A model generated the notes under the pieces. The model was given only the letters and a program-made list of their open reading frames with translations, did no database searches and had not been told where the DNA came from. DNA of 59,496 nucleotides from a virus. Taxonomy: Duplodnaviria > Caudoviricetes. Both the position numbers and the translations under genes were made by a program. This document shows, in pieces, positions 10,295 to 59,496 of this stretch. The stretch spans positions 1 through 59,496 of IMG/VR virus record IMGVR_UViG_3300035670_000232. The stretch is one strand, 5' to 3'. Within the stretch, counting starts at the first letter, position 1; each line of letters opens with the position of its first letter.

Positions 10295-11181
10295 GATGCG
10301 GGCTTGCTCCAGTCGTCGGGCTTCGTGGTGGTCACAATCGCAAACGATCCACGCCATGCGGACTTCATGGTCCGCTCGGAATCGTAGCGGAGTACGTCAT
10401 ACGAATCCGGGTAACACGCAAGCCTTTCGCCAGCCATGTACTTCGCCCACGGCACCGCATGGCCATCCCTGCCAACGCTCACGACCATGCCGCGCAGCAA
10501 GCAGCACACAGCCTCTTCGTAGCTGGCCGGGAAGATGATCTCTAACGGGCGGAACAGCTTGGCCGTCTCCTCCCAGCCATCGGGCAGGCGAGACTTGGAA
10601 ACCCACGGGCCACTGGCCTGGTTCAGTCCTCCCTTGCCGGTCGTTCCATGAATGGCGTGCTTGAACTGGTAGTCGTATGGCTGCACTGTCTCGGGCAGCA
10701 TCCCTCTGCGGACTGCAATCTCCAGCACGGCACGCACATTGGCACCACCCCACTGCCTCGGATTCGCCTCGCAGTAGACGCTCAAAGGGGACAGCCAAAC
10801 GGACCCGGCCTTGCCAGACTCGGGGTATCGGAACCCCTTCTTCGGACCCTCTGCGTACGACACCGCACGCTCTCGGTTGCGGGCCGCTTCAAAGTTTGCC
10901 CGAAGAGAATGACAGGTGCATTCATGGGTGGGCGTCTGGTTCGTGAACCTGTCTATGTAGTTCAGGCCCCATGTTCCGCACTTGTCGTTGTCTCTCGCGG
11001 CGTCGTCCCAATCCTTGGGGTCGATCATCCACGAGGCAGGCATCGAACGGGCGGCGTCACCGCACACATCTTGCAGGACATCGCGGGTATCCTCGGCAGC
11101 AAGATGTGCCGGGTAGCCGTCATGCTCGGGCAGGCGAACGTCGATGAGCGACGGGTCGATCTTGGAGAAGGAGTCAATCAT
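10291..11181 (-). CDS. Papain-like (C1-type) cysteine peptidase
   Basis: NQ....ECTCHS (Gln..Cys), LSPLSVY, GHAV, PDSY in place of NSW. Confidence 0.7.
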   Translation of the reverse strand: MIDSFSKIDPSLIDVRLPEHDGYPAHLAAEDTRDVLQDVCGDAARSMPASWMIDPKDWDDAARDNDKCGTWGLNYIDRFTNQTPTHECTCHSLRANFEAARNRERAVSYAEGPKKGFRYPESGKAGSVWLSPLSVYCEANPRQWGGANVRAVLEIAVRRGMLPETVQPYDYQFKHAIHGTTGKGGLNQASGPWVSKSRLPDGWEETAKLFRPLEIIFPASYEEAVCCLLRGMVVSVGRDGHAVPWAKYMAGERLACYPDSYDVLRYDSERTMKSAWRGSFAIVTTTKPDDWSKPAS

Positions 11182-11551
11182 TGGCCGCCTCCAAGACCTC
11201 AGCCTCGGTCTTCACCTTGACGACGCGAATAACCTTGCCGCCAGCCATCACAACCAGGGCGGGGACGCCAGCCTTCTCTGCCGCCGCCTCGGCAAGCTTG
11301 TATTGCTCGGGCGTTTCACCCGTGCCGTCCGTGCCGCCCATCTCGTGGGCCGACGCCTTGATGGTGGTGTTGAGCTTTGCCAATCCTGCCCGCACAGCAG
11401 GCGGGACAGGCTCACCATCCTTGTCCCACACATACACCACCCGGTCAGCCACCGTCACTGGCTGAACCACTGCCCACTTCGACAGGTCTGGCAGATCGGG
11501 AATCCCGAACGCCATAATCAGCCCGCCGAGAATGAACAGCCAGGGCTTCAT
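11174..11551 (-). CDS. Membrane-anchored or secreted protein, possibly a thioredoxin-like fold without CxxC
   Basis: Hydrophobic N-terminus; GVPALVV..GGKVI..TEAEVL pattern. Confidence 0.55.
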   Translation of the reverse strand: MKPWLFILGGLIMAFGIPDLPDLSKWAVVQPVTVADRVVYVWDKDGEPVPPAVRAGLAKLNTTIKASAHEMGGTDGTGETPEQYKLAEAAAEKAGVPALVVMAGGKVIRVVKVKTEAEVLEAAND

Positions 11552-11554
11552 CGC

Positions 11555-11812
11555 CTACTCCTTCACGGACTTCTCGGCCAGCATGGCCTGGAGCAGGGAC
11601 TGTGCAATGTCGGCAGCCTTGTTCTTGCCGTCCTTGCGCAGGCGGCGGGTAATATCCACCACCGTCTTCTCATCATCGACCGCACCCAGGGCCGGTTGCC
11701 CGGCACCGGGAGTCCGCTTGGGAACGTACTCCTGCCACAGCAGGTAGAGCCCGTACCCAGTGAGGCCCACGGCGATGCCAACCTGGATGGCGGTTTCGAT
11801 GATGTCTTTCAT
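11555..11812 (-). CDS. Single-TM membrane protein
   Basis: IQVGIAVGLTGYGLYLLW; AGGAG SD. Confidence 0.7.
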   Translation of the reverse strand: MKDIIETAIQVGIAVGLTGYGLYLLWQEYVPKRTPGAGQPALGAVDDEKTVVDITRRLRKDGKNKAADIAQSLLQAMLAEKSVKE

Positions 11813-12941: not shown

Positions 12942-13597
12942 TACTTAATCCTATAGAGTGGTTCGATCCGGCCGCCATGCTCAGTCACCACCTTCTGCAA
13001 GGCGGCCTTGTCGAAGGACAGAGAGTGTACCTTGGTGTCCGAGGGGTCTGTCATGGCAATGCAGTAGGCGACTGGCTCGCCATTCAATGGACACATCTCA
13101 CGCAATCGCAATGTTGCGATAGTGTTCTCCTGCTCAGTAACTTTGTCATACGCATCACGCAGCTTGCGATCCAGGTATTCTAGCTGCGAGAAATCTCTGG
13201 CCTGTCTGTCCCTGAGAACCTTAAGGTCGGACTCCACGCTGTCCTGAGCCTTGTCCTTTTCTGCGATCTTCTCTAGCAGCCTTGATTTGTGGGCTCGGCA
13301 TTCATCCAACTCGGCCTTCAGCTTGTCGATGTCCTTCTTCAGCGACTTGTTGGTTGCCTGCTCAACCTTCAGTTCAAAGCTCGCCTGACCAAGTTGCTTT
13401 ACCAGATCAATCTCCGCGACTGGCTGGGATGGCTTTTCCTCAACGCGGTTCGTCTCGCTCCAGCACCCACAAGTTGCGTATGGCTCGGTGCGGTACTCAT
13501 TCCCTGGCACAGTCCATCGGTTGCACTTGCCGGTTGAACCAGGCTCCTTGCCAGCCTTCGGCCACCAGAACACGCATGTCTTGCACACCTGACTCAT
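12941..13597 (-). CDS. Zn-binding N-terminus plus long coiled coil
   Basis: CKTCVFW..C..CGCW; heptads. Confidence 0.7.
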   Translation of the reverse strand: MSQVCKTCVFWWPKAGKEPGSTGKCNRWTVPGNEYRTEPYATCGCWSETNRVEEKPSQPVAEIDLVKQLGQASFELKVEQATNKSLKKDIDKLKAELDECRAHKSRLLEKIAEKDKAQDSVESDLKVLRDRQARDFSQLEYLDRKLRDAYDKVTEQENTIATLRLREMCPLNGEPVAYCIAMTDPSDTKVHSLSFDKAALQKVVTEHGGRIEPLYRIK

Positions 13598-13953
13598 CGC
13601 ACCCTCCTCTGTATGTAGTAATCGGCCAGCGGCTCGGGATCATATCCTAGCCACTTCTTCCTGACAAGACTGGCAAGAAACTCGGGGTCATAGTTCTTTG
13701 GGTCTACCTCCTGCTTCACCGTAAGGAGCATACCCTTGGTGAGGTCTGGCACTCCGTTCGGTGGGCCGAAGTGCAGTGTGTCGTGGCAGTCACCACATAG
13801 ACGCAAGAGATTCCTGCGGTCATGCTTGCGGCCAGCCGCGCCAACAAGATGATGGAACTGCAACCCCCTCCATCCTCCTGGTGAATGGCACACGGCACAC
13901 TTCGGCCAGAGGATAGAGAGCTTGCCAAACAGGATGGCTTCGTTCGGCTTCAC
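13594..13953 (-). CDS. HNH-family endonuclease
   Basis: CAVC..HH...NL..LCGDCH..H. Confidence 0.8.
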   Translation of the reverse strand: MKPNEAILFGKLSILWPKCAVCHSPGGWRGLQFHHLVGAAGRKHDRRNLLRLCGDCHDTLHFGPPNGVPDLTKGMLLTVKQEVDPKNYDPEFLASLVRKKWLGYDPEPLADYYIQRRVR

Positions 13954-14450
13954 TCAGATACCCCTTGAACGTATTTCAGAAATGACTGAGGCAATAGCAC
14001 CGACGAGAGAGTCGAACAGGGTCGGAGGTGCGACTTCGGTGCGGTCAGGATCCCCATGGCGTGGCCTCGGGTATTGTCTCGCGTTTCCTCTTCTCGCCAT
14101 GTCTCGTCCCGGTCTAACGTGCAGAGCCACACCCATTGGCCGGTTGGCTTTGAAAGAAAGACGTAGGCGAACTTCGTGAATCCCTCTCGCCGCAGCCCCC
14201 GCAAATCGTCCACAAACACGCGGTCGTAGGGATAGTCTTCCGGGCAGGTGAACCGCAGCGACCGCTCCTTGATTTCGATAGCCACCAATGCCGCTGCGTC
14301 CGGGGCGTCGGTGTGGTCCCGGTACTTGCAGTGGTTTTCCGCAACGATCTTCACGCCATCGAACACGCATAGCCCGGCCTCCTGCTGATTATGAACCCAG
14401 CGGCTTTCAGTCTGATGGCCCGCAGTCAGGGATGATTGAAAAGAACGCAC
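13950..14450 (-). CDS. Putative PD-(D/E)XK-like nuclease
   Basis: G...E helix, PD...EIK motif; GTG start inferred. Confidence 0.55.
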   Translation of the reverse strand: MRSFQSSLTAGHQTESRWVHNQQEAGLCVFDGVKIVAENHCKYRDHTDAPDAAALVAIEIKERSLRFTCPEDYPYDRVFVDDLRGLRREGFTKFAYVFLSKPTGQWVWLCTLDRDETWREEETRDNTRGHAMGILTAPKSHLRPCSTLSSVLLPQSFLKYVQGVSE

Positions 14451-14943
14451 GGAACCTGCCGTCCCACGAGAACGAACGGATGGAACATAGCTCCCAGATG
14501 GTGCCGCAAAATCTTGGAGGGCCATCCCAGTTAGATCGGATACGCTCGCACTCATACTGGATCTCCAAGGGCGATGGGTCTTCGGGTGTGTGCCAGCCAC
14601 GCAGCTTCTCAAGGTAAAGCGGGATGGGCTCCTGGATGCGGAGCCGCCCTGCGTTCATCTTGATCTCAAACACCCAGTCCTCGGACTCACCGAACATCTC
14701 AGCGATGTCCTCGTTGTCCAGGCCAATGTCGATCATGGCGACAAGGGCAAGTCGCTCCTTAGATGGAACCCATCCGAGGGCAGACAACAGGGAAACTACG
14801 CCGCGAAGCTGGTCACGATCCAGCTTCATCTTCCTTGCGACGTTTCCGATCCCCTCCCTGTTCACAATGCAACGACGATGAATCTCGTCGGCGTGGGCCA
14901 AAGCATGACGCAATACGAAGCCACAGTCTTTTGAAGAATCCAT
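14407..14943 (-). CDS. HTH-containing putative regulator
   Basis: Two HTH-like segments (IGNVARKMKLDR, NEDIAEMFGESEDWV). Confidence 0.55.
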   Translation of the reverse strand: MDSSKDCGFVLRHALAHADEIHRRCIVNREGIGNVARKMKLDRDQLRGVVSLLSALGWVPSKERLALVAMIDIGLDNEDIAEMFGESEDWVFEIKMNAGRLRIQEPIPLYLEKLRGWHTPEDPSPLEIQYECERIRSNWDGPPRFCGTIWELCSIRSFSWDGRFRAFFSIIPDCGPSD

Positions 14944-15049
14944 TCTTCTTTTCTACTGGGAGGAAGGTTGTCGGGAATGCATGAGCCACATCGAACGTAA
15001 CGACTATCTCATCGACTGTCTCAGGCAAGAGCCCGTCTGTGTTTGGCAC
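14813..15049 (-). CDS. Possible small hypothetical protein
   Basis: Fills the gap after the helicase but overlaps the next ORF. Confidence 0.35.
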   Translation of the reverse strand: MPNTDGLLPETVDEIVVTFDVAHAFPTTFLPVEKKNGFFKRLWLRIASCFGPRRRDSSSLHCEQGGDRKRRKEDEAGS

Positions 15050-16550
15050 GACGATCCTGCTCCTTTCTAAAGGTGGATCTGATCCACGGTTTCAGGGTTG
15101 TGTTACCAGCCCCCCACTCCAGATACCAAGGAGGGAGCTTGGACATTTCCACGCCGCCGTACTTGCCGCGCAGTGGATTGCGGTATGTTCCTACACTCCG
15201 CTTGCCGTTGGCGTCAAGTTCAAAACTCTCGCTCGTGACGTTGCCCCTCGCCCGGCCCGTCATCATCTCGCGGCGACGTTGTATTTCCTCGGCAATCATT
15301 CGTCGCTCAAGCTCTTGCTGGGCGAGTGCGTCCATCTCGGCCTGCGTGAGAGGCTCACCGGCCTCGGCCATTTGCTTCTTCACTGCCTCTCGGATGCCAG
15401 GCTTAGTGTCGCTGACGAACATATCCACAGCGGTCACGAGCCGGTGATCCAAGGAGGCGTCAGTGCAGTCGATGATCTGGAAGTCTGGCTTCCCGCTGGC
15501 GGCGATGGCTGCGATGCGGGACTCTGGAGTGGACCCGTCGAAGTCCACTGTCCCGGCAAGCGGGCGGGTCGCACGGCCCACACACTGGAGCCAGAAGCTG
15601 CGAGAGCGAGTGGGCCTGGCAAGGATCATGGTGCGAATCTTCGGGTGATCGAACCCAACCGCCACCACAGCACAGTTCACAAGAACAGTAGACTCACCAG
15701 ACTTGAACTTCTGAATGGCTACCTGCCTCTCCTCCTCGGGCTGGGTTCCCCACACCACCTCGGCCTTGACCCCGTAGTTGTTGGCGAGGTAGTGGGCGAC
15801 CCCCTTGGCCGACGCTACCGATGGCGTGAACACCACAGTCGGACCCAGTGCCTCCTGGCTTGTGATGAGGGCAATGCGGTGGAGGTTGGCTTCCTTCTCA
15901 ATGGCAGCTTGGAGTTGCTGCTGGTTGAAGTCACCGCCCTGCACCTTCACCTCAGACAGATCAAGGCTTTCCACCCTGGCGAGCTTGCACTTCGGCGGCA
16001 CCGCCCAGCCGTTAGCGATGGCCCAGTGAATGTCAAGGTTGCACAGCGGCTCGTAGTAGTCCTTCATGGCGCGGCCATCCATGAGGAATGGCGTGGCGGT
16101 GAACCCTGCAACCATGGCCCCGTGGTCGTTGAACCAGCGAAACATCTCCATGCACGGCTCAGTGAACTGCATGTGTGCCTCGTCCACAATCACAAGCCGG
16201 ATGTCCTTGAACTTCTTGTACCGCCCGCGAATGAGGGTCTGCTTGGATGCAACCACAACGGACGGGCTAAACCATTCGTCGTGATGCACGCGGTACTCTG
16301 CCATCTCCACTCCTGGATCAAGGCCGATCACCTCCCGCACCTTGTCTACTGCCTGCCAGGTCAACTCCCGCAGCGGGGTCATAATGAGAGTGCGGCCCCC
16401 GGTCTGCTCAAGCACACGGCGAGCAAGCTCCGTGAAGATGACCGTCTTGCCAGCCCCAGTGAAGATGCCGGATAGTGTGGCCTTCGTGCCTAGCTCCATC
16501 TCCAAGAGGTGCTGGTCGATGTTCGATTCTTGGTAATCGCGTGGCTTCAT
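15021..16550 (-). CDS. Superfamily 2 DEAH helicase
   Basis: TGAGKT, DEAH, TATP, GFD.P, RPTRS..QCVGRATR. Confidence 0.95.
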   Translation of the reverse strand: MKPRDYQESNIDQHLLEMELGTKATLSGIFTGAGKTVIFTELARRVLEQTGGRTLIMTPLRELTWQAVDKVREVIGLDPGVEMAEYRVHHDEWFSPSVVVASKQTLIRGRYKKFKDIRLVIVDEAHMQFTEPCMEMFRWFNDHGAMVAGFTATPFLMDGRAMKDYYEPLCNLDIHWAIANGWAVPPKCKLARVESLDLSEVKVQGGDFNQQQLQAAIEKEANLHRIALITSQEALGPTVVFTPSVASAKGVAHYLANNYGVKAEVVWGTQPEEERQVAIQKFKSGESTVLVNCAVVAVGFDHPKIRTMILARPTRSRSFWLQCVGRATRPLAGTVDFDGSTPESRIAAIAASGKPDFQIIDCTDASLDHRLVTAVDMFVSDTKPGIREAVKKQMAEAGEPLTQAEMDALAQQELERRMIAEEIQRRREMMTGRARGNVTSESFELDANGKRSVGTYRNPLRGKYGGVEMSKLPPWYLEWGAGNTTLKPWIRSTFRKEQDRRAKHRRALA

Positions 16551-16569
16551 GTAGGTTCCGTAATCTGGG

Positions 16570-16661
16570 TGCTAAGTCGCTGCTAAGTGCCACCGCAACC
16601 CGGTGCTAAGTGGCCGAAAGCGGCTTATCGGCGGGCAACCGGGACTAATAGGTAGTTAGGC
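16570..16661 (+). mobile_element. attI-like integron recombination site with upstream direct repeats
   Basis: GACTAAT-5bp-GTTAGGC (16643-16661), same geometry as attI1; TGCTAAGT x3 at 16570, 16581, 16604. Confidence 0.55.
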
Positions 16662-16952
16662 GAAGGCCGGAAGGTCGGAATCATGAACCCACTCAAACAC
16701 ATGCCACACGAATGGATTGATGACGGCTGTTCCGATAAAACGCCGAGACGCCTCATGGTTTGGACTGATCGGATTGCCGGTCCCGATGATCTCAATGCAA
16801 CGCGTCTTTGTCGCGTTCGCTGTAGGCACCAAAGCCCACAGGCATAGCTCGCCGTTCTGGTTGGCAACGCTCAATATCCTGGCGCCCGACGGCATCTCAA
16901 TGTCCTGCGTGTCGGTGATTGCCAGAGTGTATTTCCATATCCGGTTGTCCAT
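16656..16952 (-). CDS. Phage hypothetical protein inside cassette 1 (IWKY.L..MP.GA.ILSV..Q..LWA.V)
   Basis: GGAGG SD; its TAA stop lies in the GTTAGGC core site. Confidence 0.85.
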   Translation of the reverse strand: MDNRIWKYTLAITDTQDIEMPSGARILSVANQNGELCLWALVPTANATKTRCIEIIGTGNPISPNHEASRRFIGTAVINPFVWHVFEWVHDSDLPAFA

Positions 16953-16973
16953 CGTCTACCTCCTATGTGAAAC

Positions 16974-17062
16974 GCCTAACAAAGCCTTGCAGCAGAATCG
17001 CGTCGGCGTCTTTTCTCATGGTTCGTCCTTTGGCTGCGATCTGCTGAAGGCAGCCGTTAGAA
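16974..17062 (+). mobile_element. Integron attC site 1 (89 bp)
   Basis: GCCTAAC-AAAGC-CTTGCAGC-AGAATCGC...GCGATCT-GCTGAAG-GCAGCC-GTTAGAA: R'', 5-bp spacer, 8-bp L'', 7-bp L', 6-bp spacer, R', two extrahelical bases. Confidence 0.85.
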
Positions 17063-17076
17063 AACAGGAAACCAAG

Positions 17077-17148
17077 CAGCCCCACGGGGAGTCGAACCCC
17101 GACTCTCGGAACGAAAATCCGATTTCCTAACCATTAGAAGATGGGGCC
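17077..17148 (-). tRNA. tRNA-Glu (UUC), no encoded CCA
   Basis: Acceptor GGCCCCA/TGGGGCT, anticodon stem TCGGA/TCCGA with loop TTTTCGT, T-arm CGGGG-TTCGACT-CCCCG. Confidence 0.9.
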
Positions 17149-17240
17149 GTGCATTCGCCGCAGACTTTGCGGCAATTAGCCGATGTATTCGCCGCCGTAG
17201 TATTTCAGCCCCGGCTCGCTCTCATACCATTCGTCGAAAG

Positions 17241-17507
17241 TCATTTGTCCTCCAGTTCTCGCAGCCTCGCAATCGCCTCAATCATCCGCAGGTGGCACTC
17301 CTCGGTCGCCGCCATTATCGCGGCATCTCTCTCCGCTCGTATCGCTCGCATGTCGCGATCAAAAACGTGAACGCTCCAGGCAACGCCAAAGCCGACCACA
17401 ACGACCAACACCCCGAAGAGCATCGCCTCGTCGTTCCAGAATTTACAGAGCCGCACAAAAGCCCTAACAAAGCCTTGCAGCCGACTCCTAGCAGCGTCTG
17501 TCATCAT
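17241..17507 (-). CDS. Single-TM membrane protein starting inside attC2
   Basis: GGAG SD and ATG in the attC2 central region; TM LFGVLVVVVGFGVAWSV. Confidence 0.7.
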   Translation of the reverse strand: MMTDAARSRLQGFVRAFVRLCKFWNDEAMLFGVLVVVVGFGVAWSVHVFDRDMRAIRAERDAAIMAATEECHLRMIEAIARLRELEDK

Positions 17508-17550
17508 TGATACTCCATTGGCTGCGATCTGCTGAAGGCAGCCGTTAGAA
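17462..17550 (+). mobile_element. Integron attC site 2 (89 bp)
   Basis: CCCTAAC-AAAGC-CTTGCAGC...GCTGAAG-GCAGCC-GTTAGAA; right ~35 bp identical to attC1. Confidence 0.8.
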
Positions 17551-17570
17551 AAACCCCCGTCTCTCCGGGG
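17549..17570 (-). terminator. Hairpin with U-tract after ssb
   Basis: CCCCG-GAGAGA-CGGGG-G-TTTTT on the - strand. Confidence 0.45.
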
Positions 17571-17621
17571 CGTCAAGCCTAATGTCGCTGGCTTTCGCGG
17601 ACTGGCGGGAGGGTGGACCGC

Positions 17622-17978
17622 TCAGTCAAAGTCACCAAAGTCGTCGTCGCGGGACGGTGCCTTCTTGGGCTTGTCACCGCCACCCTTGCCGCACAGCTTC
17701 ACGCATCGCGTGTTGACTACCGTGCGCCGGTGAGTGACACCATCCTTTTCCCACGACTGGTTCTCCAGTTCCCCTTCGATGAGGACGGGAGTTCCCTTGG
17801 AGATGTAGTCCAGGCCGCCCTTCGGCTCCCACCAGACCACATCCATAAACGTCACCTTGTCGTCGTAACCATTGATGGCAATGCTGAACTTCGCCAGCGT
17901 CTTGCCGCCCTTGGTTTCGTGAACCTCGGGATCCTTGGTCACGTTACCCATCGCAATGTACTTCTGATAACCCATCAC
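17622..17978 (-). CDS. ssb: Single-stranded DNA-binding protein
   Basis: GNVTKDPE, KG..V.IEG.L...SWEKDG, acidic tail DDDFGDFD. Confidence 0.92.
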   Translation of the reverse strand: MMGYQKYIAMGNVTKDPEVHETKGGKTLAKFSIAINGYDDKVTFMDVVWWEPKGGLDYISKGTPVLIEGELENQSWEKDGVTHRRTVVNTRCVKLCGKGGGDKPKKAPSRDDDFGDFD

Positions 17979-18133
17979 TCACCCTCCTTCTTTAGGGAAA
18001 CAAACTCTTTCAACGCTTCATCATACCGTCGCCTGCGGTCAATCTCCTCACGGACCATGACCGTGGCTATCTGAACAAACGAACGCAAGTCCTGGGCAAG
18101 CTCAACGAATGCTCTGTCTGCATTACCCTGCAT
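17975..18133 (-). CDS. Small hypothetical protein
   Basis: GAGG SD; stop overlaps the ssb start. Confidence 0.55.
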   Translation of the reverse strand: MQGNADRAFVELAQDLRSFVQIATVMVREEIDRRRRYDEALKEFVSLKKEGE

Positions 18134-18800
18134 CCTCGGCCTCCCACTTCTTCTTGTACTCGGCCTCGCACCGCTTGTAGACGCCAGGGGTAATGGCCTT
18201 CTCCTTGGCACGGAGCTTCACCTTAGCCAGGAACTTGGCCGCAGCCTCAGCATCCTCGGCACTGACAATAGCCTCCTTGGCCGCAGCCTCGTAGGCCAAC
18301 TCCTTTTCCATGTCTTCCGCAACCTGCATGGACTTGGAAGCAGGCTTCGGCTCCGGTTCCGCCCGGTCCTTGTGTTCGCCAAGCCCGTTGCCATCGTCGT
18401 CAGGTTCGCCGCTGAACGCACCAGTCAAGGCCATGAGGAGAGTACGCTTGGCATAGGTGCAAGCGGACCCGAACTCCTGCATATGCTTCTTGCCCATGTA
18501 CAGCGGGGCCATGGCCGAGATGTACTCCCCGCTCATGTGCCTCAGCGTACCGATCATCACCCAATCGCCATTCGGCAGCACGCCCGTCCGGTAGTCAGGC
18601 AGGGCCATGCCGTGCTTCACAAGAGCTTCACGAACCGCAAGGCAGCACGACTGGAATGAGGCGTACTTGCTGCGGAAGTGATCGTTCTTGCTATCAAAAC
18701 CGGCAGTCTTGAACTCAAGCTGTGCAGCACCCAAAGCTGCCGTCAGCTTTGCCGTTGTGCCAGTACCGCTCGGCCCAAGGACTTCGTTATGGTCATTCAT
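18123..18800 (-). CDS. ERF-family ssDNA annealing protein
   Basis: N.HF.SKYA, H.SGE, FGSA.TYAKR, DDDGN. Confidence 0.9.
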   Translation of the reverse strand: MNDHNEVLGPSGTGTTAKLTAALGAAQLEFKTAGFDSKNDHFRSKYASFQSCCLAVREALVKHGMALPDYRTGVLPNGDWVMIGTLRHMSGEYISAMAPLYMGKKHMQEFGSACTYAKRTLLMALTGAFSGEPDDDGNGLGEHKDRAEPEPKPASKSMQVAEDMEKELAYEAAAKEAIVSAEDAEAAAKFLAKVKLRAKEKAITPGVYKRCEAEYKKKWEAEDAG

Positions 18801-19662
18801 CACCCTCAAGGTCTACGACCCCCTCCAAGTTCAGAGCCCACTGCGGCAAGGCAAGCTCAGTGATAGTCTCCGATGCAGGCGGAAGGTACTCCCCCGTCTG
18901 CTGCCGCAAGACAACATCTTCGATCACGCTCATGAGTTGTGCGCCTACCCCCTGTACGAAATCTTGCGGGAGCGTGTGTACCCTGCAAGCGTACGGCGGC
19001 ATGGTCTGGACAAAGACGAATGGCATCGCAAAGTCCACAAGACCCTGCACCGCAGCAGCGGCGTGCTGGTAGATGAAGTCCTGCTCCGCATATCCATAAG
19101 ACAGGACTGACCTGGCTAGGTCACTGAATGACTTGCTCGTTGTCTTGAGATCCCACACAAGCTCCCTGGTCACGCCGTCCGGGCGGTACTTCATTCGCAA
19201 GCCGCCAAGCTCATACAAGCCTACGTCCTGTGTTGACACGGTATTGTCCAAGAGATAGCGGGCAGCGGGGTTCTCGTACATATGGTCAAGCATCGTCTCA
19301 AAAACTTCCTTCTCTGACTCACTGACGATGATGCCCTTCTGCTCTGCGGCCCATTCCTTGTAGGCGTTGCCCGACCTGGCCCCGTTCTTGGCCAACACAT
19401 CGACTGGCGGGACCACAACAGAGTCATCGAACGACTTCCCGGAGAGGATGTTCATAACAATGTCGTCAAACGCTGTGCCGATACTTGTGCTTTTTGTGTC
19501 AGCCCGGAGCCGCTTGCCAGCGTCCAGCCACCGCTGCACCTCACCGCCACCCATCTTCACAGCGGTCAGGTAAGACCGGGAAGGCAGGGGGATGTTGAGG
19601 TACTCGTACATCGACATCCCCGTGACCAGTCGGGGCAGTTCGCAGGTCGCGTAATCAATCAT
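18793..19662 (-). CDS. RecE/exonuclease VIII-like PD-(D/E)XK exonuclease
   Basis: GTAF, K.RPD, DLKTT, Y..Q..IY motifs. Confidence 0.85.
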   Translation of the reverse strand: MIDYATCELPRLVTGMSMYEYLNIPLPSRSYLTAVKMGGGEVQRWLDAGKRLRADTKSTSIGTAFDDIVMNILSGKSFDDSVVVPPVDVLAKNGARSGNAYKEWAAEQKGIIVSESEKEVFETMLDHMYENPAARYLLDNTVSTQDVGLYELGGLRMKYRPDGVTRELVWDLKTTSKSFSDLARSVLSYGYAEQDFIYQHAAAAVQGLVDFAMPFVFVQTMPPYACRVHTLPQDFVQGVGAQLMSVIEDVVLRQQTGEYLPPASETITELALPQWALNLEGVVDLEGDE

Positions 19663-19730
19663 CGCTTCACCCTCATAAAGAAGCCCCATCCGTGGGGCCA
19701 ACGCCATCCGTGACATGAATGACGAGGGAG

Positions 19731-19758
19731 ATAGTAGCGATGGCGGTCAGGGTGTCAA
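19731..19758 (-). promoter_or_regulatory. Sigma70-type promoter for the recombination/replication operon
   Basis: TTGACA-16nt-TACTAT. Confidence 0.7.
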
Positions 19759-22700
19759 GAGGGCTTTCCCAAAAAAAACTTCCAGCGGGTCACGCTCGGC
19801 TTTTTTGCGTTCCCTAGCCCGCTTAGATGCCTCAGCCTGCATGATCCGGTAGTGCATGTACTGCCTACGTTGATCTTCAGAGAGCCGTGCGAGAGCCTCT
19901 TCCGGCACGTTGAGCGTCTCGTAGCTTTGGACGCCAGGCACTGTGCGAAGAAGTTCTGCGTAGGTGTCACGGGCCGCATGCTCCATAGCCTTGTTGCGAT
20001 CAATCGTGCGTAGCCCAGCGCCCACGAGCTTGTTGGCGATGAGCTTCTGCGCTCGCTCCATCGGCGACAGTCGCTCGTCAATAGCAGTGCGAACGATACC
20101 GGCAGCCTGGCCACCCCCTGGAACGTTCACGAGCAGTTGCTCTATATGGCGGCCTAAGGTTCCGAGCCCCGCCTTGTCCTCAAGCATGGAGTAGGTGTCG
20201 CTGAGTTCACGGCCCGAGTAAAGCTGGCGGTCCAGCAGCAACTCAAGCGGCGCCTTGACTGCGGGGTTCAGCATCCCAGCAAAGTTCATCCCGGTCTTCT
20301 GGAGTGCGTCAGTGACCTTCTCGTACAGCGTGCCGCCGATGCCAGGAGAGATGAGATTCACTGGGTCATAGGGCATGGTGATGCCGCTGATGACGTTGGC
20401 AAGGTTCGGGTCACTCCCTGCCGCACCTGGGATTTGGATAGCCGCTGACTTGCGGAGATGCTCTGGAAGGAAGGTGTCCTCGTTCGGGCGTGATGCGTTG
20501 GAGATTGCCCGAATCGTCCGGCCCTGCAATGCACCAGGCCGCTCAAGGATGTTCTCTACCACCGAAGGAATGATGCCACGGGGGTAGGAGTAGAAGGGGA
20601 TGAACCGCTTCAGCTTCCGCTCAAACTCCGTGAATGCGGCTGGACTGTAGTCGATCTGCGTCTTGGCCACTTTGGCAGCAGCGGCATCTGGCACGGCACC
20701 ACGGCGAATCTCACCGAGGTAGGTGCCTACGCGATTGGCGTCTTCCACTCGCTTGCCAAGTCGCTCGTTCCATTGCAGCAGCGGGTTGAGGGTCTCCTTC
20801 GGGGCAGCGCGTTCTTTAGCGATGCCAGCAAAGTCAACTCCGCGAACGGTCAGCCAGTCCATCCACGAACGGTCTTTGTCGTAGAGCTTCGGCCTAGTCT
20901 GGTCGCCCTGCCCAACAATGAATGCTCTGGTGTCAGCCCCCTCATTGATGAAGCCCTGCCCAAGGTCGTGACGACCAGACTCCATGAGGAACTTGTCGAT
21001 CCGCTGCTTGGTGTCCAGGCCCTCATAGCCAGGGGCTTTGGCAAGCCGCTTGGCGATGGCGTTGTAGTTGCCGCTCCCGGCCCGCATGCCAGCCCACCAG
21101 TCGGCCACGCGACCAGGGAGAGCCTTGAGCCCACCCTCGTCCGTGTTCATCATCGTGGACAGCAGGCCTGAGTACAGGTTGCGGAAGTGGTACGCGGGAG
21201 ACGCAAGCGCACCGACCTTGAACGAGCTTGTGTAGCTGTCGTACAGCCTGGTCAGCGGGTTGTCCTTGTTCAGCGCTTGCTGTGGGGCAACCTTCTTGAG
21301 GGCGTTGAGTTCGGATTCCGAGATGGAGTGGCGAGCCACATCCATGCCAGTCAGTTCCTCAAAGCGATTCTTGTTGAAGCCAATGTCCTTGAGGGCTTGG
21401 TCCATCGGGACGTAGCCACCGCCCTCAATCATGTCGGCAAGCTGCGGCCGGGCAGCAGCGGCAAGCCTGTCGCGCAGCATATCGGCCGCACCAACAGACC
21501 TGGCCTCGCCAAGCATGGAGCGAGCCATGTCGCTAACCACGCTGTTGTCGAACAGGCCAATGCCTTCCTGGGCGTGCTGGAGGTCGGCCTGCCTGAGCAG
21601 GTCGCCAAGCTCCGTCTTGAGTTGGCGTTGCTTGCCCGTCAGGAGATCCAGTGCGGATTGAAGTTTGGCTGGCTCGTCAATGTCCGGCGTGGCAAGAGCC
21701 CCCATGAGGGAGTCAATGGTTTGGCCCTCGTGCCGGATGTTCTGATATGGGGCCTCAAGGCCGAGGCTTGCAAACGCCTGGTCGATGATCGCAGGAGTGT
21801 CTGCTGGTGCAGCTTCGATCAGCCTTTGTTGCAGCCCCTCCACCTGCGGGTCCGTGAGGAGGCGGCGGAAGGTTTCCCGTGGGCGAACGATGTCGGTGTA
21901 CTCGCGTCGGCCCTTGCCAACGAGATCGTCAAGAGAGAACAGCCGCTCGCCTCGTTCATACGGAATCTTCTTGCGAGGATCGCGGTTCGGAATGACAGGA
22001 GCTTCTTCAGTGGCAAACCTCTTCACCTGGCGGGCCAGGTAGCTCGTGCCTTCATTGCTACCAAAGGACGCGGCGTTGAGCCCTGCGGCCTCTCGGTTGC
22101 GGAGAGACTCAAGGTTGCGGCGGTGCGACCAGTCGGCGAAGTCACGCCATGCCGGGGTGTTCATCACCAGATCCACAGCACTCTGGTCTGTGATGTTGGC
22201 AATGTTGGCCGGATCCATCCCGGCTTCGATCATGTCGGCAATGGCGTTCTGCACACGCTGGCTGTTGAAGTTGACGGCCTCGCCGCCCAACTCTCCTGTC
22301 ACGCCATCCGATGCACGGTAGACCTCACGGGCCAGTTCCTCGCGGGCATCGCCCATTGCCTTCTTCTGATTGGCGAACGCCTCGCGGGCAAGCCACTGAT
22401 CTGCACGGTCGGTCTGCCCCATGACTGTGGGGTCAAATGCCGCAATAGCACGAGTCGCCAGCGGGCCGGTGTACCTATTGGAGGCAAGTCCTTCGCCGAG
22501 CTTGTCGAATGCTCGTGCAATCGGGCGGCCAGCCTCGCCCGTGAGGATCGGAAGCCCGGTCTTCATACCAGGAATGCGGGCCTCCATCACGGCACCCAGC
22601 GTCTGATCCAGGAGGGAGTCAGCATCTAGCCCGGAACCTTGGGCGGCGCGGGTGAAGTTGGACAGTGCATCTTCGCGAGCCTGGCTGATGAGATCCTGCG

Positions 22701-26514: not shown

Positions 26515-29178
26515 TTACGCTGCGTAAGATGGACCCGCTGGCCGCATGCCGACACGAATGATTTGAGAAGAAGGCTTGGGCTTACCGACCCAGTGGGAGA
26601 TGTCAGCGTTCGGGCCAAAGAGGCCAGTCTGACGAATCGTGCTATCAAACAGCCCGCCAATCTGGCCAGCAGTCTTGTCCCCCTGCCGGAAAATATCTCC
26701 AACCAGGCCAGACACTGGCGACAGCATCCCGCCCACTTGGTCGTAGAAGTTCTGGTTCCCAAGGCTGGAGTTCCAGAGCGAGTTGAGTTGACCGTAAGCC
26801 TGGCTTGGATCAGACGACGAGCCGCCCTGAATGGAACCAGCCAGAGCGTTCAGTGCCTCTCGGTCACGGTCGAAGTTGGCCCAGTTCTGCGGGTTCAGCT
26901 GCGCGCTGTAGAACTGATTCATGCCATCATCCATGGCACTGCGTCCGCTGGACAGCATCCCATTGAGGCCGGTCAGCGTCTGACCGAGCATCGACTGCGG
27001 GACACCGGCTTGCGACTGGAATCCTCGCTCAAGCTGGCCCCGAGCCGTGGCGTCTTGGTCATTCAACTGCGAGAGCAGTGAGGAAGTCTGCAACCCGATG
27101 CGATCCATGTCGCCGCGAGTGGTGTTGCCTACATCCGCAAGGGACGAGTCAAGTCGGCTGCCGACGTTGTTCATGAGCCCGGTGGTCTGGGATTCGATGG
27201 CAGCACGCTTGGCGTCAGCGGAACTTCCAATCTGAGACACAAGCCCCCGACCAGAAGATGCAAGCTCCCCGGTCTGCCTCGCCATGCTGTCGTCAATGCC
27301 GCCGAGAAGGCCCTGGCCGATTGATCCAATGCGGTCCATCGCGCTGCCCATCTTACTGCCGATGGAGCCCATTCCGGTGGAGGCTTGATTGGCAATGGCG
27401 CCCATGCCGCTCGTCATGGAGCCGCCGATGCTGCCCATGTCTCGGTCGGCGTCAGCGGAAAGCATACCGAGAAGCCCGCGAGTGCTGCCGTCGATTGAGC
27501 CAAGAGTGCTGCCAAGGCGGCTGTCAATCGCACTAGTGCCAAGGCCAGTCTGATTGGCGATGTCGCCCATGCGGCCAGCCATCGAACTTTCAATCTGGCC
27601 AAGGTTCCCAGAGTTCATCCCGCCAAGCTGGCCGAGGGTCTGCCCGAGAGTAGCAGTGTTGTTGCCGTACCCCGAGTTCGCATGACCGGCCACACGATCC
27701 ATGGCGTTGTTCGCCATTGCGGCAAGGTCAGCGCCGTATTGGCCATAGTTGGTGCCGCCGTTGAAGTTGAAGTTGAGCCCGCCGCCACCCAGTCCCCAGC
27801 CGCTTGCAATCGGACCATTGACGCCAGTTGCATTGAATGCGCCGCTGCCGCCCATGCCGCTCAAGGCACCAGAAACCATGCCAGCACGGCCGAGATTCCC
27901 GGAGGCACCAATAGCTGCCTGTCCAAGGAGGGCGTTGGAGTCAAGGGCTCCACGGGCGATTTGGCCCACGTTCGCAAGACCAGCCTGGTTAGTAAGGCCA
28001 GCAGCCTGAAGGCCAGCCTGGGACGATCCGCCCATCGCAGAAAGCCCGGCCTGAGATGCGCCGTTCATGGCGTTGAGGCCAGCCTGCTGCGTAGCCCCCA
28101 TTGCATTCATGCCAGCGTTCGCAGCCCCGCCCATGGCGCTAAGACCGGCCTGCGATGTTCCGCTCATGCCAGCTTGGCGAGCCTGGGCTGCTGCACCCTT
28201 CGCCGTAAGACCAGCCTGGCCGAGCATGCCTGAAGCCTGGAGCCCATTGGACCCCATATTCCCCATGGCCTGGAGCCCGGCCTGCGATGTTGCCCCAAGC
28301 GAATTGGTGACGCCTTGGCCTACAATGCCTTGCGACTGAAGGCCAGCGACATTGGTGTTGCCCATCGCGTCCATCATTGCGCGTGAGGCTTCACTCATGC
28401 CCTGAAGTCCAGCCGTGTTGGTCAGCCCAGCCGACTGAAGCCCGGACTGGCCAATACCGCCCATCGCACCAAAAGCCGACGAGCCAAGCTGGCCCTTTGC
28501 CTGAAGGCCAGCGTTACTCGCAAGCCCCTGAGCATTGAGCCCCGATTGACCGAGAGAGCTTCCGGCCGCCTGGTTTGCAGCCTGCATGTCCGACAGGGCC
28601 TTCATGTAGCCAGCAGTCTGCATGGCTTGAGCCTGCTGCGCTGCACTAGAGGCGCTTCCGAAAGAGGCAAGGCCCTGCCCATACATCTGCGAAGCGCCGT
28701 GCTGACGGGCGGCCTCGGCCATGGCGTTGGCGCCGTAGAGATTGCCTCGCTCGTTTGCTTGAGCCTGAGCGAGATCGCTGTAAGCACCACCAAGCTGCGC
28801 GAGACTTGATCCTCGCATAGCATCTGAGGTCGTGCTTGAACGATAAATGTCAGCGAGCGACTGAGCAAAGCCAACGGGAGCCTGAGCAAAAGAGTTCATT
28901 GCCCCGCCCATGGCATTGGCCATCGCCCCGCCAATCTGGCCAGCCGCCTGGTACTGCCCAGCCGCGTTGCCGCCAATGGCATTGGCAAACATTCCAGGCT
29001 GCTTGTAGAGCGTATCCAGAATCCCGGCCTGTCCCTGGAGTCGCGACTGCTGGGTGGCCTGGTTGGCGTTATTGATGCCGACGAGCCCGGCCACATGCGA
29101 ACTGTAGGCGTCCATCGCTGGACCCCAAGCCGCTGGATTGCCACTAAGCCACGACGGGTAAGCTGGGATTTGAGTCAT
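26515..29178 (-). CDS. G/A/S/Q/M-rich DNA pilot/ejection protein with 11-residue repeats
   Basis: Two blocks of about 20 hendecads (e.g. SQAGLSAMGGA). Confidence 0.75.
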   Translation of the reverse strand: MTQIPAYPSWLSGNPAAWGPAMDAYSSHVAGLVGINNANQATQQSRLQGQAGILDTLYKQPGMFANAIGGNAAGQYQAAGQIGGAMANAMGGAMNSFAQAPVGFAQSLADIYRSSTTSDAMRGSSLAQLGGAYSDLAQAQANERGNLYGANAMAEAARQHGASQMYGQGLASFGSASSAAQQAQAMQTAGYMKALSDMQAANQAAGSSLGQSGLNAQGLASNAGLQAKGQLGSSAFGAMGGIGQSGLQSAGLTNTAGLQGMSEASRAMMDAMGNTNVAGLQSQGIVGQGVTNSLGATSQAGLQAMGNMGSNGLQASGMLGQAGLTAKGAAAQARQAGMSGTSQAGLSAMGGAANAGMNAMGATQQAGLNAMNGASQAGLSAMGGSSQAGLQAAGLTNQAGLANVGQIARGALDSNALLGQAAIGASGNLGRAGMVSGALSGMGGSGAFNATGVNGPIASGWGLGGGGLNFNFNGGTNYGQYGADLAAMANNAMDRVAGHANSGYGNNTATLGQTLGQLGGMNSGNLGQIESSMAGRMGDIANQTGLGTSAIDSRLGSTLGSIDGSTRGLLGMLSADADRDMGSIGGSMTSGMGAIANQASTGMGSIGSKMGSAMDRIGSIGQGLLGGIDDSMARQTGELASSGRGLVSQIGSSADAKRAAIESQTTGLMNNVGSRLDSSLADVGNTTRGDMDRIGLQTSSLLSQLNDQDATARGQLERGFQSQAGVPQSMLGQTLTGLNGMLSSGRSAMDDGMNQFYSAQLNPQNWANFDRDREALNALAGSIQGGSSSDPSQAYGQLNSLWNSSLGNQNFYDQVGGMLSPVSGLVGDIFRQGDKTAGQIGGLFDSTIRQTGLFGPNADISHWVGKPKPSSQIIRVGMRPAGPSYAA

Positions 29179-35880: not shown

Positions 35881-36542
35881 GGCAGGCCGAGGATGGATGA
35901 GCCGTTGATGCCTTGCGGGATGATGACACCACTAGGGTCGCTAACGCCCAGGAACGTGTCGGCAACCGTGAGTCTCGCATTGAGCACGCCCATTCTCACG
36001 GAGTTCGCCCCGTTGAGGTTGGCACTGGCGGTAGCAAACGAAGAATCGTTGAACACGACATCACCAGACGTGACGGCGCCGGAGTGGTATGACGTATCAT
36101 TGAATACCGCGCCGCCGTTCACGGTGCCTTGGTTGTATGACGTATCATTGAACACTGCGCCGACGTCCACGGTGCCTTGGTTGTATGACGTATCATTGAA
36201 TACCGCGCCGCCGTTCACGGTGCCTTGGTTGTATGACGTATCATTGAATACCGCGCCGCCGTTCACGGCTGTGGCGTTATAAGCAGAGCCGCCAAACGTC
36301 GCCCCATTCGTTGCGGTTACTTCGATTGCAATGTAGCCACCGACATTGCCAGCATCTGGCATTGCCAGTGTATTGCACACCGCCGGATCGCCAGAATTTG
36401 TCGACACGCTCGCCAGCAAAACAGCATCATCACTGGCCGTCGGGATCGTCGTCGCCCCAGTGCCATCGTCATTCAGCCACCAGTTGCCAGCGTCATTCCA
36501 GTCGCCGTTGGCTTCAGCGTCGTTGAAGTATTTGGTTGCCAT
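35877..36542 (-). CDS. Beta-helix-like repeat tail protein
   Basis: W...GNW N-terminus; VNGGAVFNDTSYNQGT repeats. Confidence 0.75.
   Translation of the reverse strand: MATKYFNDAEANGDWNDAGNWWLNDDGTGATTIPTASDDAVLLASVSTNSGDPAVCNTLAMPDAGNVGGYIAIEVTATNGATFGGSAYNATAVNGGAVFNDTSYNQGTVNGGAVFNDTSYNQGTVDVGAVFNDTSYNQGTVNGGAVFNDTSYHSGAVTSGDVVFNDSSFATASANLNGANSVRMGVLNARLTVADTFLGVSDPSGVIIPQGINGSSILGLP
36087..36268. repeat. 48-bp tandem repeat, about 3.8 copies, in frame
   Basis: GTATGACGTATCATTGAATACCGCGCCGCCGTTCACGGTGCCTTGGTT; copy 2 has 4 substitutions. Confidence 0.95.
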
Positions 36543-43384: not shown

Positions 43385-43988
43385 CCTTGGCCTTCCTTAC
43401 CACTTCAAACTCCGCAGGGTCCGGGATGGAGATGGCATCCGGGTCGCTAGACGTAATCATCTTCACTGGCTGGCCGTTGACGTTCATTGCCTGCGCCATC
43501 TGGGCGGCCTCAAGCATGATCCTTCGACGGTACTCGGCCTCAAGCTCTTCCTCAGTCATCGCCTCCAAGGGCTTCACCGCACCGCCCATTGAGGTATTTG
43601 CTGTCACCAGTCCGAGTGCCGCCAAGAGCATCTTCGTCCTCGTGGCACCGCCGCTCGGGGTGTCGTAGAGGTTCTTCATGAAGACGTTCATGTAGCCACG
43701 CACGCCCCCGAAGTACTCCATCATCACTTCCAGGAGTTCCCTGGAGTGAGGAATGTTCCCGCCCCCGATGCGAGCAGAAGCAGTGAAGATGTCTACTGCG
43801 CCTCTCTCTATCTCCTCCAGCTTGGCGTCTCGCTTTTTCTTTACCCTTTCCTCGCGGGTCAGTTTGCGACATAGACGACACTCCGAACGAAGCCCATCGG
43901 GCGCATGGGAGTTGATATTGAAGAACTCCTCCGTGGCCGGTTTGATCTTCCGGCACAGAGTACACGCCTTGGTCTTCTCTTCAGACAT
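43335..43988 (-). CDS. Putative terminase small subunit with N-terminal Zn finger
   Basis: CxxC...KP..EF...DGL.SECxxC; MTEEEL motif; directly upstream of terL. Confidence 0.6.
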   Translation of the reverse strand: MSEEKTKACTLCRKIKPATEEFFNINSHAPDGLRSECRLCRKLTREERVKKKRDAKLEEIERGAVDIFTASARIGGGNIPHSRELLEVMMEYFGGVRGYMNVFMKNLYDTPSGGATRTKMLLAALGLVTANTSMGGAVKPLEAMTEEELEAEYRRRIMLEAAQMAQAMNVNGQPVKMITSSDPDAISIPDPAEFEVVRKAKDGKEEAPSSTAAPDPS

Positions 43989-45396
43989 AAGTCTTCCAGA
44001 CAGTGCCTTCGGTCTGATAGAGCTTGAACTTCTCCTTGACCGTTTCTGTCACGCCGGGGAAATGCCCATAGTCATGCCCGGCCAGGATGTACCGCGTCTT
44101 CGGCAGCCATGCGTCGATGTCAGCCTTGAGCGAGTCCGCATCATGCTCAGCGTCCAGATACACAATGTCGAACGACTTATCCTCAAACATCTTGGCCGCC
44201 TTGAGCGAGTCCATAATGAGAGGCTTGATCTTGGGCTGATGGTGCGTGTTTCGCAGGAACACCTCAAACGGAGTTCCTCGCGATTTATCGTACACCTTGC
44301 AGCCATCGTCGTTCTTGTTGCCTTCCCAGTGATCAACGCAGGTCACTTCGGCACCGGCGTTCGCCATGGCAAGAGCAGAAGCACCGGCCCACGAGCCGAC
44401 CTCGCAAACCTTCGGCTCGCGGCCGTACTTCTCTTTGAACCGCTCAACCATTGTGGCGAGTGCATAGAGATCCCCGGCCGGTGTCTGTAGGCCCATGTCG
44501 TCAAATGCTGGCTGATCTTTCTTGGCATCCAAGATCCGCTGGAGTTTTGGATTGGCAGTGATGTTGATGATCTTCGTTGAGGAGTCGTGGCCTGACTTGG
44601 CGGCGTCAGCGAGCTTCTTGCTCACACCGGCAGCATCAATGACCTGAGGCTTCGTGACTACCTTCGGCTTCCAGTGGCCAGCCCACGCATCCCAGTTCAC
44701 CATCACTGGGTTGTACCCGAGCTTCTGGATGCCAACGAGCGAGATGTCACGGGTGTTTGTCACATCTTCTGTGGACTGCTTCTCGGCACCGTAGAGATCA
44801 AACTCGTAGTAGAACCACGGCTTGTCGCCTTCTTCCTTTGGCTCAGTAAGCTCAAAGGCTCTCATGTCATACATGATGAGCCCTGTCGGCAAAGCAGCGC
44901 ACTCCTGAATGCCAGCCATCTTGCTTGCCGTGTGGCGATCAAACATCTCTAGCTGGTAGTCCGGGCCGACCCCGCCAGTCTCGCGATTCTGCCAGCGGAA
45001 GATGTATGGAAGCTCGTGCGGTGGCGGCCCACAGTATGGAGCCCCAATCACAAAAGGCCCCTTGTGGTAGTTCTGGACTATGAAGTCAAAGGACGACTCA
45101 AAGAACGGCTTGGCGCCGGGATCGTTGATGTGGATGTCAGGCCACATATCCGAGTCAACCATAACCAAGATGTCGGCGTTCATCGCCCTGGCTTGCAGCA
45201 CGGCGCGATTACGGGTCATCGTGATCGGCGTGTCGCTGAGCTTGTCGAAGTGGATCCGCTCAATACGCGGGTCGCGAGAAGCATTCACCGCAAGAGGAAT
45301 CATCCACTCGCGAACATCGGGAACCTCTGATGAAGTGCCGCCGTTGCCCCCGTACGGAAAGCTGTAGACAACAACAACAAACTTCTGCTGAGCCAT
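43981..45396 (-). CDS. GT-A glycosyltransferase-like fused to class I SAM methyltransferase
   Basis: RN..V, VDSD (DxD), ED motif; EVGSWAG.S, VDHW.G, D..YLDA.H, AGHDY. Confidence 0.85.
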   Translation of the reverse strand: MAQQKFVVVVYSFPYGGNGGTSSEVPDVREWMIPLAVNASRDPRIERIHFDKLSDTPITMTRNRAVLQARAMNADILVMVDSDMWPDIHINDPGAKPFFESSFDFIVQNYHKGPFVIGAPYCGPPPHELPYIFRWQNRETGGVGPDYQLEMFDRHTASKMAGIQECAALPTGLIMYDMRAFELTEPKEEGDKPWFYYEFDLYGAEKQSTEDVTNTRDISLVGIQKLGYNPVMVNWDAWAGHWKPKVVTKPQVIDAAGVSKKLADAAKSGHDSSTKIINITANPKLQRILDAKKDQPAFDDMGLQTPAGDLYALATMVERFKEKYGREPKVCEVGSWAGASALAMANAGAEVTCVDHWEGNKNDDGCKVYDKSRGTPFEVFLRNTHHQPKIKPLIMDSLKAAKMFEDKSFDIVYLDAEHDADSLKADIDAWLPKTRYILAGHDYGHFPGVTETVKEKFKLYQTEGTVWKTYV

Positions 45397-45469
45397 TCTC
45401 AAATCCTCGGGGGTTGGATCGGAAACTGTGCCGAAATCCTACCCGCCGAGCGCAGTAGCGTCCAATGGT

Positions 45470-59422: not shown

Positions 59423-59496
59423 CGTTCTACCCTCACTAGGTTGGCCCCGGTTCCGAAGCGGTTCCGATCGCCACTAGTAGGTATATCGGCCCGTCA
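59261..59496. repeat. Right copy of terminal direct repeat
   Basis: Matches 1-236. Confidence 0.95.

Follow-up and report, generated by a model that had tools for sequence, protein, structure and literature searches.

A probable integron-type cassette platform without an integrase in the genome of a tailed phage

The window analysed here is the whole of IMG/VR virus record IMGVR_UViG_3300035670_000232, a tailed phage (Duplodnaviria; Caudoviricetes) of 59,496 bases with a completeness rating of 100%, in which portal and large terminase genes are present. Every gene between 13.5 and 23.5 kb lies on the minus strand, in the order PD-(D/E)XK nuclease, Erf, ssb, cassette region and helicase according to Pfam matches and the list of open reading frames (ORFs). 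The cassette region (16551-17550) is the subject of this report. It starts with an attI-like module (16551-16657, plus strand) made of three 13-nt direct repeats and a core with crossover point G16655|T16656, and continues with cassette 1 (16656-17056, plus strand), which ends with attC1 (16973-17062, plus or top strand), and with cassette 2 (17057-17544, plus strand), which ends with a partly decayed attC2 (17461-17550, plus strand). On the attI side the backbone flank is the helicase gene (15021-16550, minus strand; Pfam Helicase_C, DEAD and ResIII). On the distal side it is ssb (17622-17978, minus strand; Pfam SSB and synteny), whose terminator-like hairpin (17555-17570, minus strand) directly abuts the right box of attC2 and forms the backbone boundary, the right end of the platform falling in the T-run of this terminator.

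The two attC elements correspond to 95-nt repeats (16970-17064 and 17458-17552) that align without gaps at 82% identity and have a 24-nt core found twice in the record against zero expected occurrences. The predicted fold of both consists of an R box and an L stem separated by an unpaired spacer, one arm of the L stem having two bulged bases; the stem is laid out as 5 pairs, a bulge, 6 pairs, a bulge and 6 pairs, with spacers of 3 nt and 4 nt, exactly as in 29 attC sites from chromosomal arrays of Pirellulales. The bulged letters differ from those of classic attC sites. The outer core triplets lie at 16978 (left) and 17056 (right) in attC1 and at 17466 and 17544 in attC2, and the right box of both elements departs in its last letter from the outer core consensus RYYYAAC ... 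GTTRRRY as given in PMC9892861. A covariance model (R1) was built from the 29 host sites, with all copies of the phage-type element excluded, and run over the whole record with filters off. It matched only 16972-17066 (75.1 bits, E=3.3e-20) and 17460-17554 (52.1 bits, E=2.9e-13), both on the plus strand; the next best match reached 12.3 bits (E=0.33), and the reverse strand of attC1 scored 7.6 bits. The fold of attC1 contains no non-standard pair and that of attC2 three, all in the inner stem. An Rfam scan of the window gave a tRNA as the sole match. An earlier sequence-only reading of the locus had described two elements of attC anatomy and proposed a covariance-model search; the repeats are real, they fold as it described, and the clade-specific model finds exactly these two, on one strand only. 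Its crossover positions needed correction, with the crossover G now placed at 17056 for attC1 and 17544 for attC2, and its picture of the elements had to be amended for the three broken pairs of attC2. We had also considered that the repeats might be a duplicated gene start encoding a conserved N-terminal peptide and dropped this idea, as the copies are read in different frames and bacterial copies lack a start codon at that position. The two elements are attC sites of the family found in the chromosomal integrons of Pirellulales.

That family was traced through several sets of sequences. The 24-nt core recurs in 6 viral contigs (8 additional stretches), frequently in several copies on the same contig. 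When the two inner boxes were searched as a gapped pattern, 7 contigs of species-representative genomes gave one match each; six of these contigs are labelled Pirellulales, Pirellula or Bythopirellula and one Cyanobium. The last, a 2.6-kb contig (L028), consists almost wholly of six Pirellulales-type attC sites and has probably been wrongly binned. Five element-bearing genomes, all metagenome-assembled, were searched for an integron integrase: three encode one above the curated cut-off of TIGR02249, and a fourth has two adjacent intI pieces below it. The element is the third repeat after an IntI scoring 371 bits in the bacterial genome G004; in G002, likewise bacterial, it is the repeat nearest a truncated intI and one of at least 8 similar repeats. 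The G002 intI (L040 9830-10360) covers model positions 140-315 only and is followed by a 319-aa ORF (10785-11744) that, by eye, looks like a transposase. With nhmmer, 12 bacterial loci yielded 46 such repeats, those of any one locus all sharing a strand, and an Rfam scan of seven bacterial loci gave no matches. Wherever intI was present (four of four loci: L040, L041, L043 and L137) it lay upstream of the attC top strands and co-directional with them; in class 1 integrons intI is divergent from the array. The intI genes at L043 716-1660 and L041 4058-4984 are full-length. The bacterial cassette genes ParE_toxin, DUF2442 and DUF4160 are read in the sense direction. Phage and bacterial copies of the element are near-identical (79-96%). 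Across the 29 aligned host sites, a model in which three outer pairs and a spacer are followed by a 17-pair stem interrupted by two bulged bases reaches 96.2% pairing, compared with 26-40% when the partners are slid; seven pairs have compensatory changes on both sides, and both the percentage paired and the covariation score lie beyond all 500 shuffles. A metagenome scan for the element returned at least 117 stretches, and the 80 loci fetched from these held 212 attC-like matches, never on both strands in one locus. The element is widespread.

Integron crossover takes place inside the right core site, so the start of an integrated cassette is complementary to the left core of its own attC. Cassette 1 has this property: its first 7 letters together with the preceding G (16655-16662) are the exact reverse complement of the last 8 letters of the attC1 left box (16973-16980), which directly precede the attC1 stem. 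We examined 18 cassettes for the same signature, taken as neighbouring site pairs in seven viral loci plus two attI junctions, with L045 (which duplicates L044), L046 (a single site) and the truncated matches L015 3487-3541, L016 9471-9524 and L009 omitted. Complementary runs of at least 8 letters were present at the ends of 16 of the 18 (run lengths 5, 7, 8 in thirteen cases, 9 in two, and 10). Only 22 of 557 non-cognate end pairs reached 8 letters, none of 100000 partner shuffles reached the observed run sum, and the right and left flanks of the same site matched over 3-7 letters only. Furthermore, the left flank of the first site and the right flank of the last site match for 8 letters in both L047 and L048, as would be expected if cassettes had been inserted into a single self-complementary site. 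The cassettes of this phage group therefore follow the integron boundary rule. The complementarity between the attC1 left box and the sequence at 16655, as the sequence-only reading had it, is thus exact over 8 letters. The cassette signature itself holds for cassette 1 (run of 8) and fails for cassette 2, whose atypical ends match over 5 letters only and whose start resembles the backbone letters after attC2.

The receiving site is attI-like. Three 13-nt direct repeats (16568-16580, 16579-16591 and 16602-16614) precede the core, and G16655 is the last letter before cassette 1. In G007/G009 and in L058 the array likewise terminates in this core with its repeats, each time with a different first cassette after the same G, and the two of these three attI-like junctions that were scored for cassette ends both gave runs of 8. 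The predicted attI-like site with three direct repeats is thus borne out, and its junction is kept in two further phage lineages; the same junction holds different cassettes in different phages. The neighbours of the module differ: in this record it adjoins the helicase, in G009 and L058 unrelated genes in convergent orientation. The earlier remark on the helicase as occupying the place of intI therefore has no force. A shorter pattern of the attI core was found in 14 stretches of viral contigs, three of which are true relatives (L006, L059 and L058, from two lineages); the remaining 11 were set aside as chance matches in AT-rich DNA. A 15-nt direct repeat, which takes in the crossover region, flanks the module in G009 (L045 1957-1971 and 2065-2079).

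Comparison with related phages showed what the locus looks like when the region is absent. In relatives with helicases of 39-55% identity the helicase directly follows ssb; L011 (helicase 55% identical), L014 and L016 have ssb and then the helicase after about 135-150 nt, and the spacer contains a hairpin and a T-run and has no likeness to the module. The shortness of this spacer implies that the platform is an insert of approximately 1 kb. Model R1 found no attC in L011-L014 and gave five attC matches in L015 and three in L016, at another variable spot. These arrays (L015 3487-4844 and L016 9471-10531), in phages whose helicase is 39% identical, lie between homologues of 13950-14612 (a 220-aa ORF) and 13594-13953 (HNH). 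G006 exceeds G009 by exactly one cassette with its attC. The comparison of the helicase-ssb interval that the sequence-only reading proposed turned up related phages without the entire insert.

Population data came from assembled contigs of 4 sequencing runs of one study, three of which may be the source of the record. Contigs were found to end at 16657-16661 and within the attC sites; in the deepest run the backbone contig (8138 nt) runs no further than 16659, and cassette 1 forms a contig of its own (373 nt). We identified seven joints, each connecting the final letters ahead of the crossover with the opening letters of an attC (16657/16978, 16658/16977, 16659/16976, 16660/16974, 16660/16975, 16661/16974 and 16657/17466). 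Their mirror-like series is what would be expected of contigs with other cassettes whose ends are complementary, equal letters being shared at each end. Two other continuations behind 16660 could be read directly, and other backbones join before 16630. Some of the contigs surely belong to related phages, since summed cassette depth exceeds backbone depth. As the two sites share 39 identical letters, more than the word length used for the contigs, the order of the parts is taken from the original assembly and from equal depths.

The phage cassettes are read in an unusual direction. Cassette 1 carries a 98-aa DUF7352 / phrog_3848 gene (16656-16952, minus strand; Pfam E=8.9e-27, PHROG E=1e-23), antisense to attC1; the opening three letters of the cassette make up the stop codon of this gene. 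An 18-codon ORF upstream of it (16963-17019, minus strand) has its start codon in the attC1 loop and ends 10 nt short of the DUF7352 start. Cassette 2 contains a gene for tRNA-Glu with anticodon UUC (17076-17148, minus strand; ARAGORN, and 57.2 bits with the Rfam tRNA model) and a 95-aa ORF with a hydrophobic stretch (17241-17528, minus strand), the first ATG of which lies in the attC2 loop and for which no family was found in Pfam or PHROG. All family-supported phage cassette genes (DUF7352, N6_N4 methylase, DUF4326, HNH and DUF6527) are antisense to the attC top strand, as is the tRNA. Among full-length attC matches, an ATG on the antisense strand of the loop is present in 16 of the 17 viral sites, as against 8 of 41 from bacteria and 60 of 198 from metagenomes. 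Six of the viral loop ATGs open ORFs of at least 50 aa into the cassette (for example the methylase at L003 10466-11275) and nine open ORFs of 15-49 aa. The conserved arm of attC is read in two frames among the copies, and this use of different frames places the conservation at the level of DNA and not of protein coding. Also conserved in most phage cassettes is a short stretch immediately outside the left core site, which contains a stop codon on the gene strand.

Searches in six frames with PF00589 and TIGR02249 gave no match in this record (G000) or in G009, both of which are 100% complete, and there was likewise none in G007, in G008 (searched with PF00589 only) or in G010 (searched with TIGR02249 only). 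The earlier statement that the phage encodes no tyrosine recombinase is thereby upheld. With two attC sites on one strand and no intI, the record classes as a cluster of attC sites lacking an integron integrase (CALIN) and not as a complete integron, in which intI stands beside attI. In stretch L058 a recombinase gene next to the array matches PF00589 and the phrog_1 integrase and has only the catalytic motif region in common with host IntI; we dropped the idea that it is a hidden IntI, as it does not match the integron-integrase model.

Taken together, these data make it probable that 16551-17550 is an integron-type cassette platform without an integrase, inserted in the genome of a tailed Pirellulales phage between the terminator of ssb and the start of the helicase gene, and that the IntI of the host acts on it in trans. 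Its parts would be the attI-like site with repeats and core, cassette 1 with DUF7352 and attC1, and cassette 2 with tRNA-Glu, small ORFs and the decaying attC2. During infection, the host integron integrase would act on the folded bottom strand of attC, which is the minus strand of the window, and recombine it with the phage attI or with another attC, so that phages could gain, lose and exchange cassettes from a phage-adapted pool. The cassette genes, antisense to the attC top strand, run along the direction of the phage operon. The attC loop has a ribosome-binding stretch and an ATG on the gene strand, so that each cassette would bring its own translation start, either fused to the cassette gene or as a short, coupled upstream ORF. 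Borrowing of the host IntI, which the sequence-only reading had already suggested, is inferred from sequence, and it is better founded now that the same attC type is known from Pirellulales arrays next to intI genes. A more far-reaching version, in which this is a phage-adapted integron that keeps its attI without an integrase, lets host IntI trade phage-specific "backwards" cassettes expressed at once from the operon, and is still turning over, we regard as evenly balanced between right and wrong.

Several observations weigh against this explanation. No recombination event was seen in the contig data, and the excision joint 16655-17057 is not among the contig joints, assembled contigs being prone to drop rare forms. 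Each joint was read as two sides of only 21-30 letters, all from one study, and the joints may come from related phages that share the core of approximately 30 nt. The end run of 5 in cassette 2 is the lowest of the 18 and breaks the end rule, and attC2 has three broken inner-stem pairs; this portion of the platform, at the least, may be fixed. Folding energy is near the level of shuffled sequence, with bottom-strand z-scores of -1.65 for attC1 and -0.94 for attC2 (15 of 200 and 30 of 200 shuffles, respectively, folded at least as well), and among the 29 host sites the numbers of double-change pairs (73/500) and further pair types (23/500) fall within the shuffles. The module itself was found by nhmmer in 0 of the 80 metagenome loci carrying the element, and the attI core as an exact pattern in 0 metagenome contigs. 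At bacterial junctions adjoining intI the likeness to the phage core is looser and consists of an A-rich box some ten letters ahead of the crossover; of 44 junctions defined by upstream cognate starts in 86 arrays, many are undetected attC sites, and only the few adjoining intI were used for this comparison. No cassette body is common to the fetched phage and bacterial loci, where only attC-sized matches were obtained. A small tyrosine recombinase that is not an IntI adjoins the distal array end in two viral contigs, as a full gene in L058 (4594-5502) and as a fragment in G006 (L003 7891-8298). Finally, the host is putatively assigned to Pirellulales (Planctomycetota) by attC likeness alone.

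The strongest alternative, which we nevertheless consider unlikely, is that a piece of a host array, or an insertion at a secondary site, was picked up once through illegitimate recombination and is now an inert fossil spread only by ordinary mosaicism of phages. The decay of attC2, the unmatched ends of its cassette and the absence of an integrase from the phage are all consistent with such a capture, as is the position of the right platform end in the T-run of the ssb terminator; published phage arrays have been discussed likewise in PMC9892861, and IntI is able to insert cassettes at non-att genome sites (10.1101/2022.09.11.507474). However, a fossil would not be expected to have an intact attC1 free of non-standard pairs, matching ends in nearly all cassettes of the group (16 of 18), three different cassettes at the same junction in three phages, a pair of phages (G006 and G009) differing by one cassette, or contigs that branch at the crossover. 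The cassette genes are moreover of phage families and all co-oriented with phage transcription, and start codons in 16 of the 17 viral attC loops point to long selection inside phages.

Even less probable is that the repeats serve as 5′ leaders and as portable homology of approximately 90 nt for exchange by the phage Erf, exonuclease and SSB proteins, the attC shape being ancestry only. The starts in nearly all viral loops and the short ORFs that end at or beside the next gene start would suit a leader, and Erf, PD-(D/E)XK nuclease and ssb genes beside the array, together with cores identical over at least 24 nt in many phages, would suit homologous exchange. Homology cannot, however, account for insertion at the attI-like junction, which has only the crossover triplet in common with the repeats; it leaves the mutual complementarity of cassette ends unexplained, and the repeats retain the stem with its two bulged bases just as host sites do. 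It is highly improbable that a phage-borne recombinase of the L058/G006 type, supplied in trans by co-infecting or resident relatives, acts on the attI-like module as an arm-type site: the gene directly adjoins the array in 2 viral contigs, matches PF00589 and phrog_1 integrase, and would go with direct repeats beside a core, which are typical of phage attP arms, but it is absent from both complete array-bearing records, fails to match the integron-integrase model while having only the catalytic motif region in common with host IntI, sits at the array end far from the attI-like site, and would have to work on sites of a family that host integrons use with their own IntI.

Other features of the record lie outside the platform. 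The GenBank phage collection, searched with 15000-19800, contained no relative and yielded a single tRNA-sized match of 59 nt. The record is called linear by IMG/VR, and its ends (1-236 and 59261-59496) are 236-nt direct repeats of 95% identity, which may represent a terminal repeat or else variants that overlap in the assembly. A 39-nt repeat is present in three copies near the left end (282-772), and 48-nt tandem repeats (36073-36312) and 33-nt periodic repeats (27973-28468) lie inside large minus-strand ORFs that probably encode tail or fibre proteins. A backbone gene at 43981-45402, outside the array, has a DNA methyltransferase PHROG match.

Integrons are viewed as bacterial devices and phage attC clusters as stray pieces; here the sites look maintained and adapted in phages, because an insertion site is conserved without an integrase, the cassette ends match, the content differs between close relatives and within samples, and the sites double as translation starts. 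If a host integrase does serve the phage in trans, phages could exchange gene modules site-specifically, in addition to homologous mosaicism. Phage-host conflict would then also involve integron activity, the cassettes including a DNA methylase and an HNH nuclease, and attC families might be used to assign hosts to uncultured phages.

Integrase-less attC arrays in phages have been described before. Qi et al. (2023; PMC9892861) reported 17 such clusters and found that five of six tested phage sites recombine with attI1 under IntI1, so that the earlier designation of the present locus as a new system was too strong. The phage CALINs of that paper resemble ours in having at least two attC sites, no intI, DNA methylase cassettes and, in one array, a position just downstream of a terminator (PMC9892861). 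The present platform differs from them in having an attI-like site, which other phage lineages also conserve; in addition, its attC family can be tied to the chromosomal integrons of a host order, its genes are antisense with translation starts in the attC loops, and population data reveal different cassettes at one junction. Neither antisense cassettes nor planctomycetes are mentioned in the text of PMC9892861, the supplement of which, with its 17 arrays, may hold closer cases. In the full-text literature as covered by our search, no other paper dealt with attC sites in phage genomes, and none on Planctomycetes integrons treated phages. The presence of intI in the phylum Planctomycetota has been reported (PMC2426708). 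With the sedentary chromosomal integrons of Planctomycetota the platform shares attC architecture, boundary rule and crossover triplet; in contrast, those integrons have intI upstream and co-directional (4 of 4 loci), sense cassettes, another attI core and an antisense loop start in only 8 of 41 sites. Insertion at non-att "attG" sites (10.1101/2022.09.11.507474) is similar in that it would leave attC cassettes outside an integron, with no integrase nearby, expressed from neighbouring promoters. Whereas attG sites are scattered secondary sites, the receiving site here has direct repeats and is the same in three phages. The attI1 site of class 1 integrons contains a short ORF with a ribosome-binding site that aids translation of cassette genes; the phage cassettes, by comparison, have the start inside the attC loop, on the strand that runs against the usual direction of cassettes. 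The new parts of the present system are therefore the attI site, the link to a host attC family and the antisense cassettes with start codons inside attC loops.

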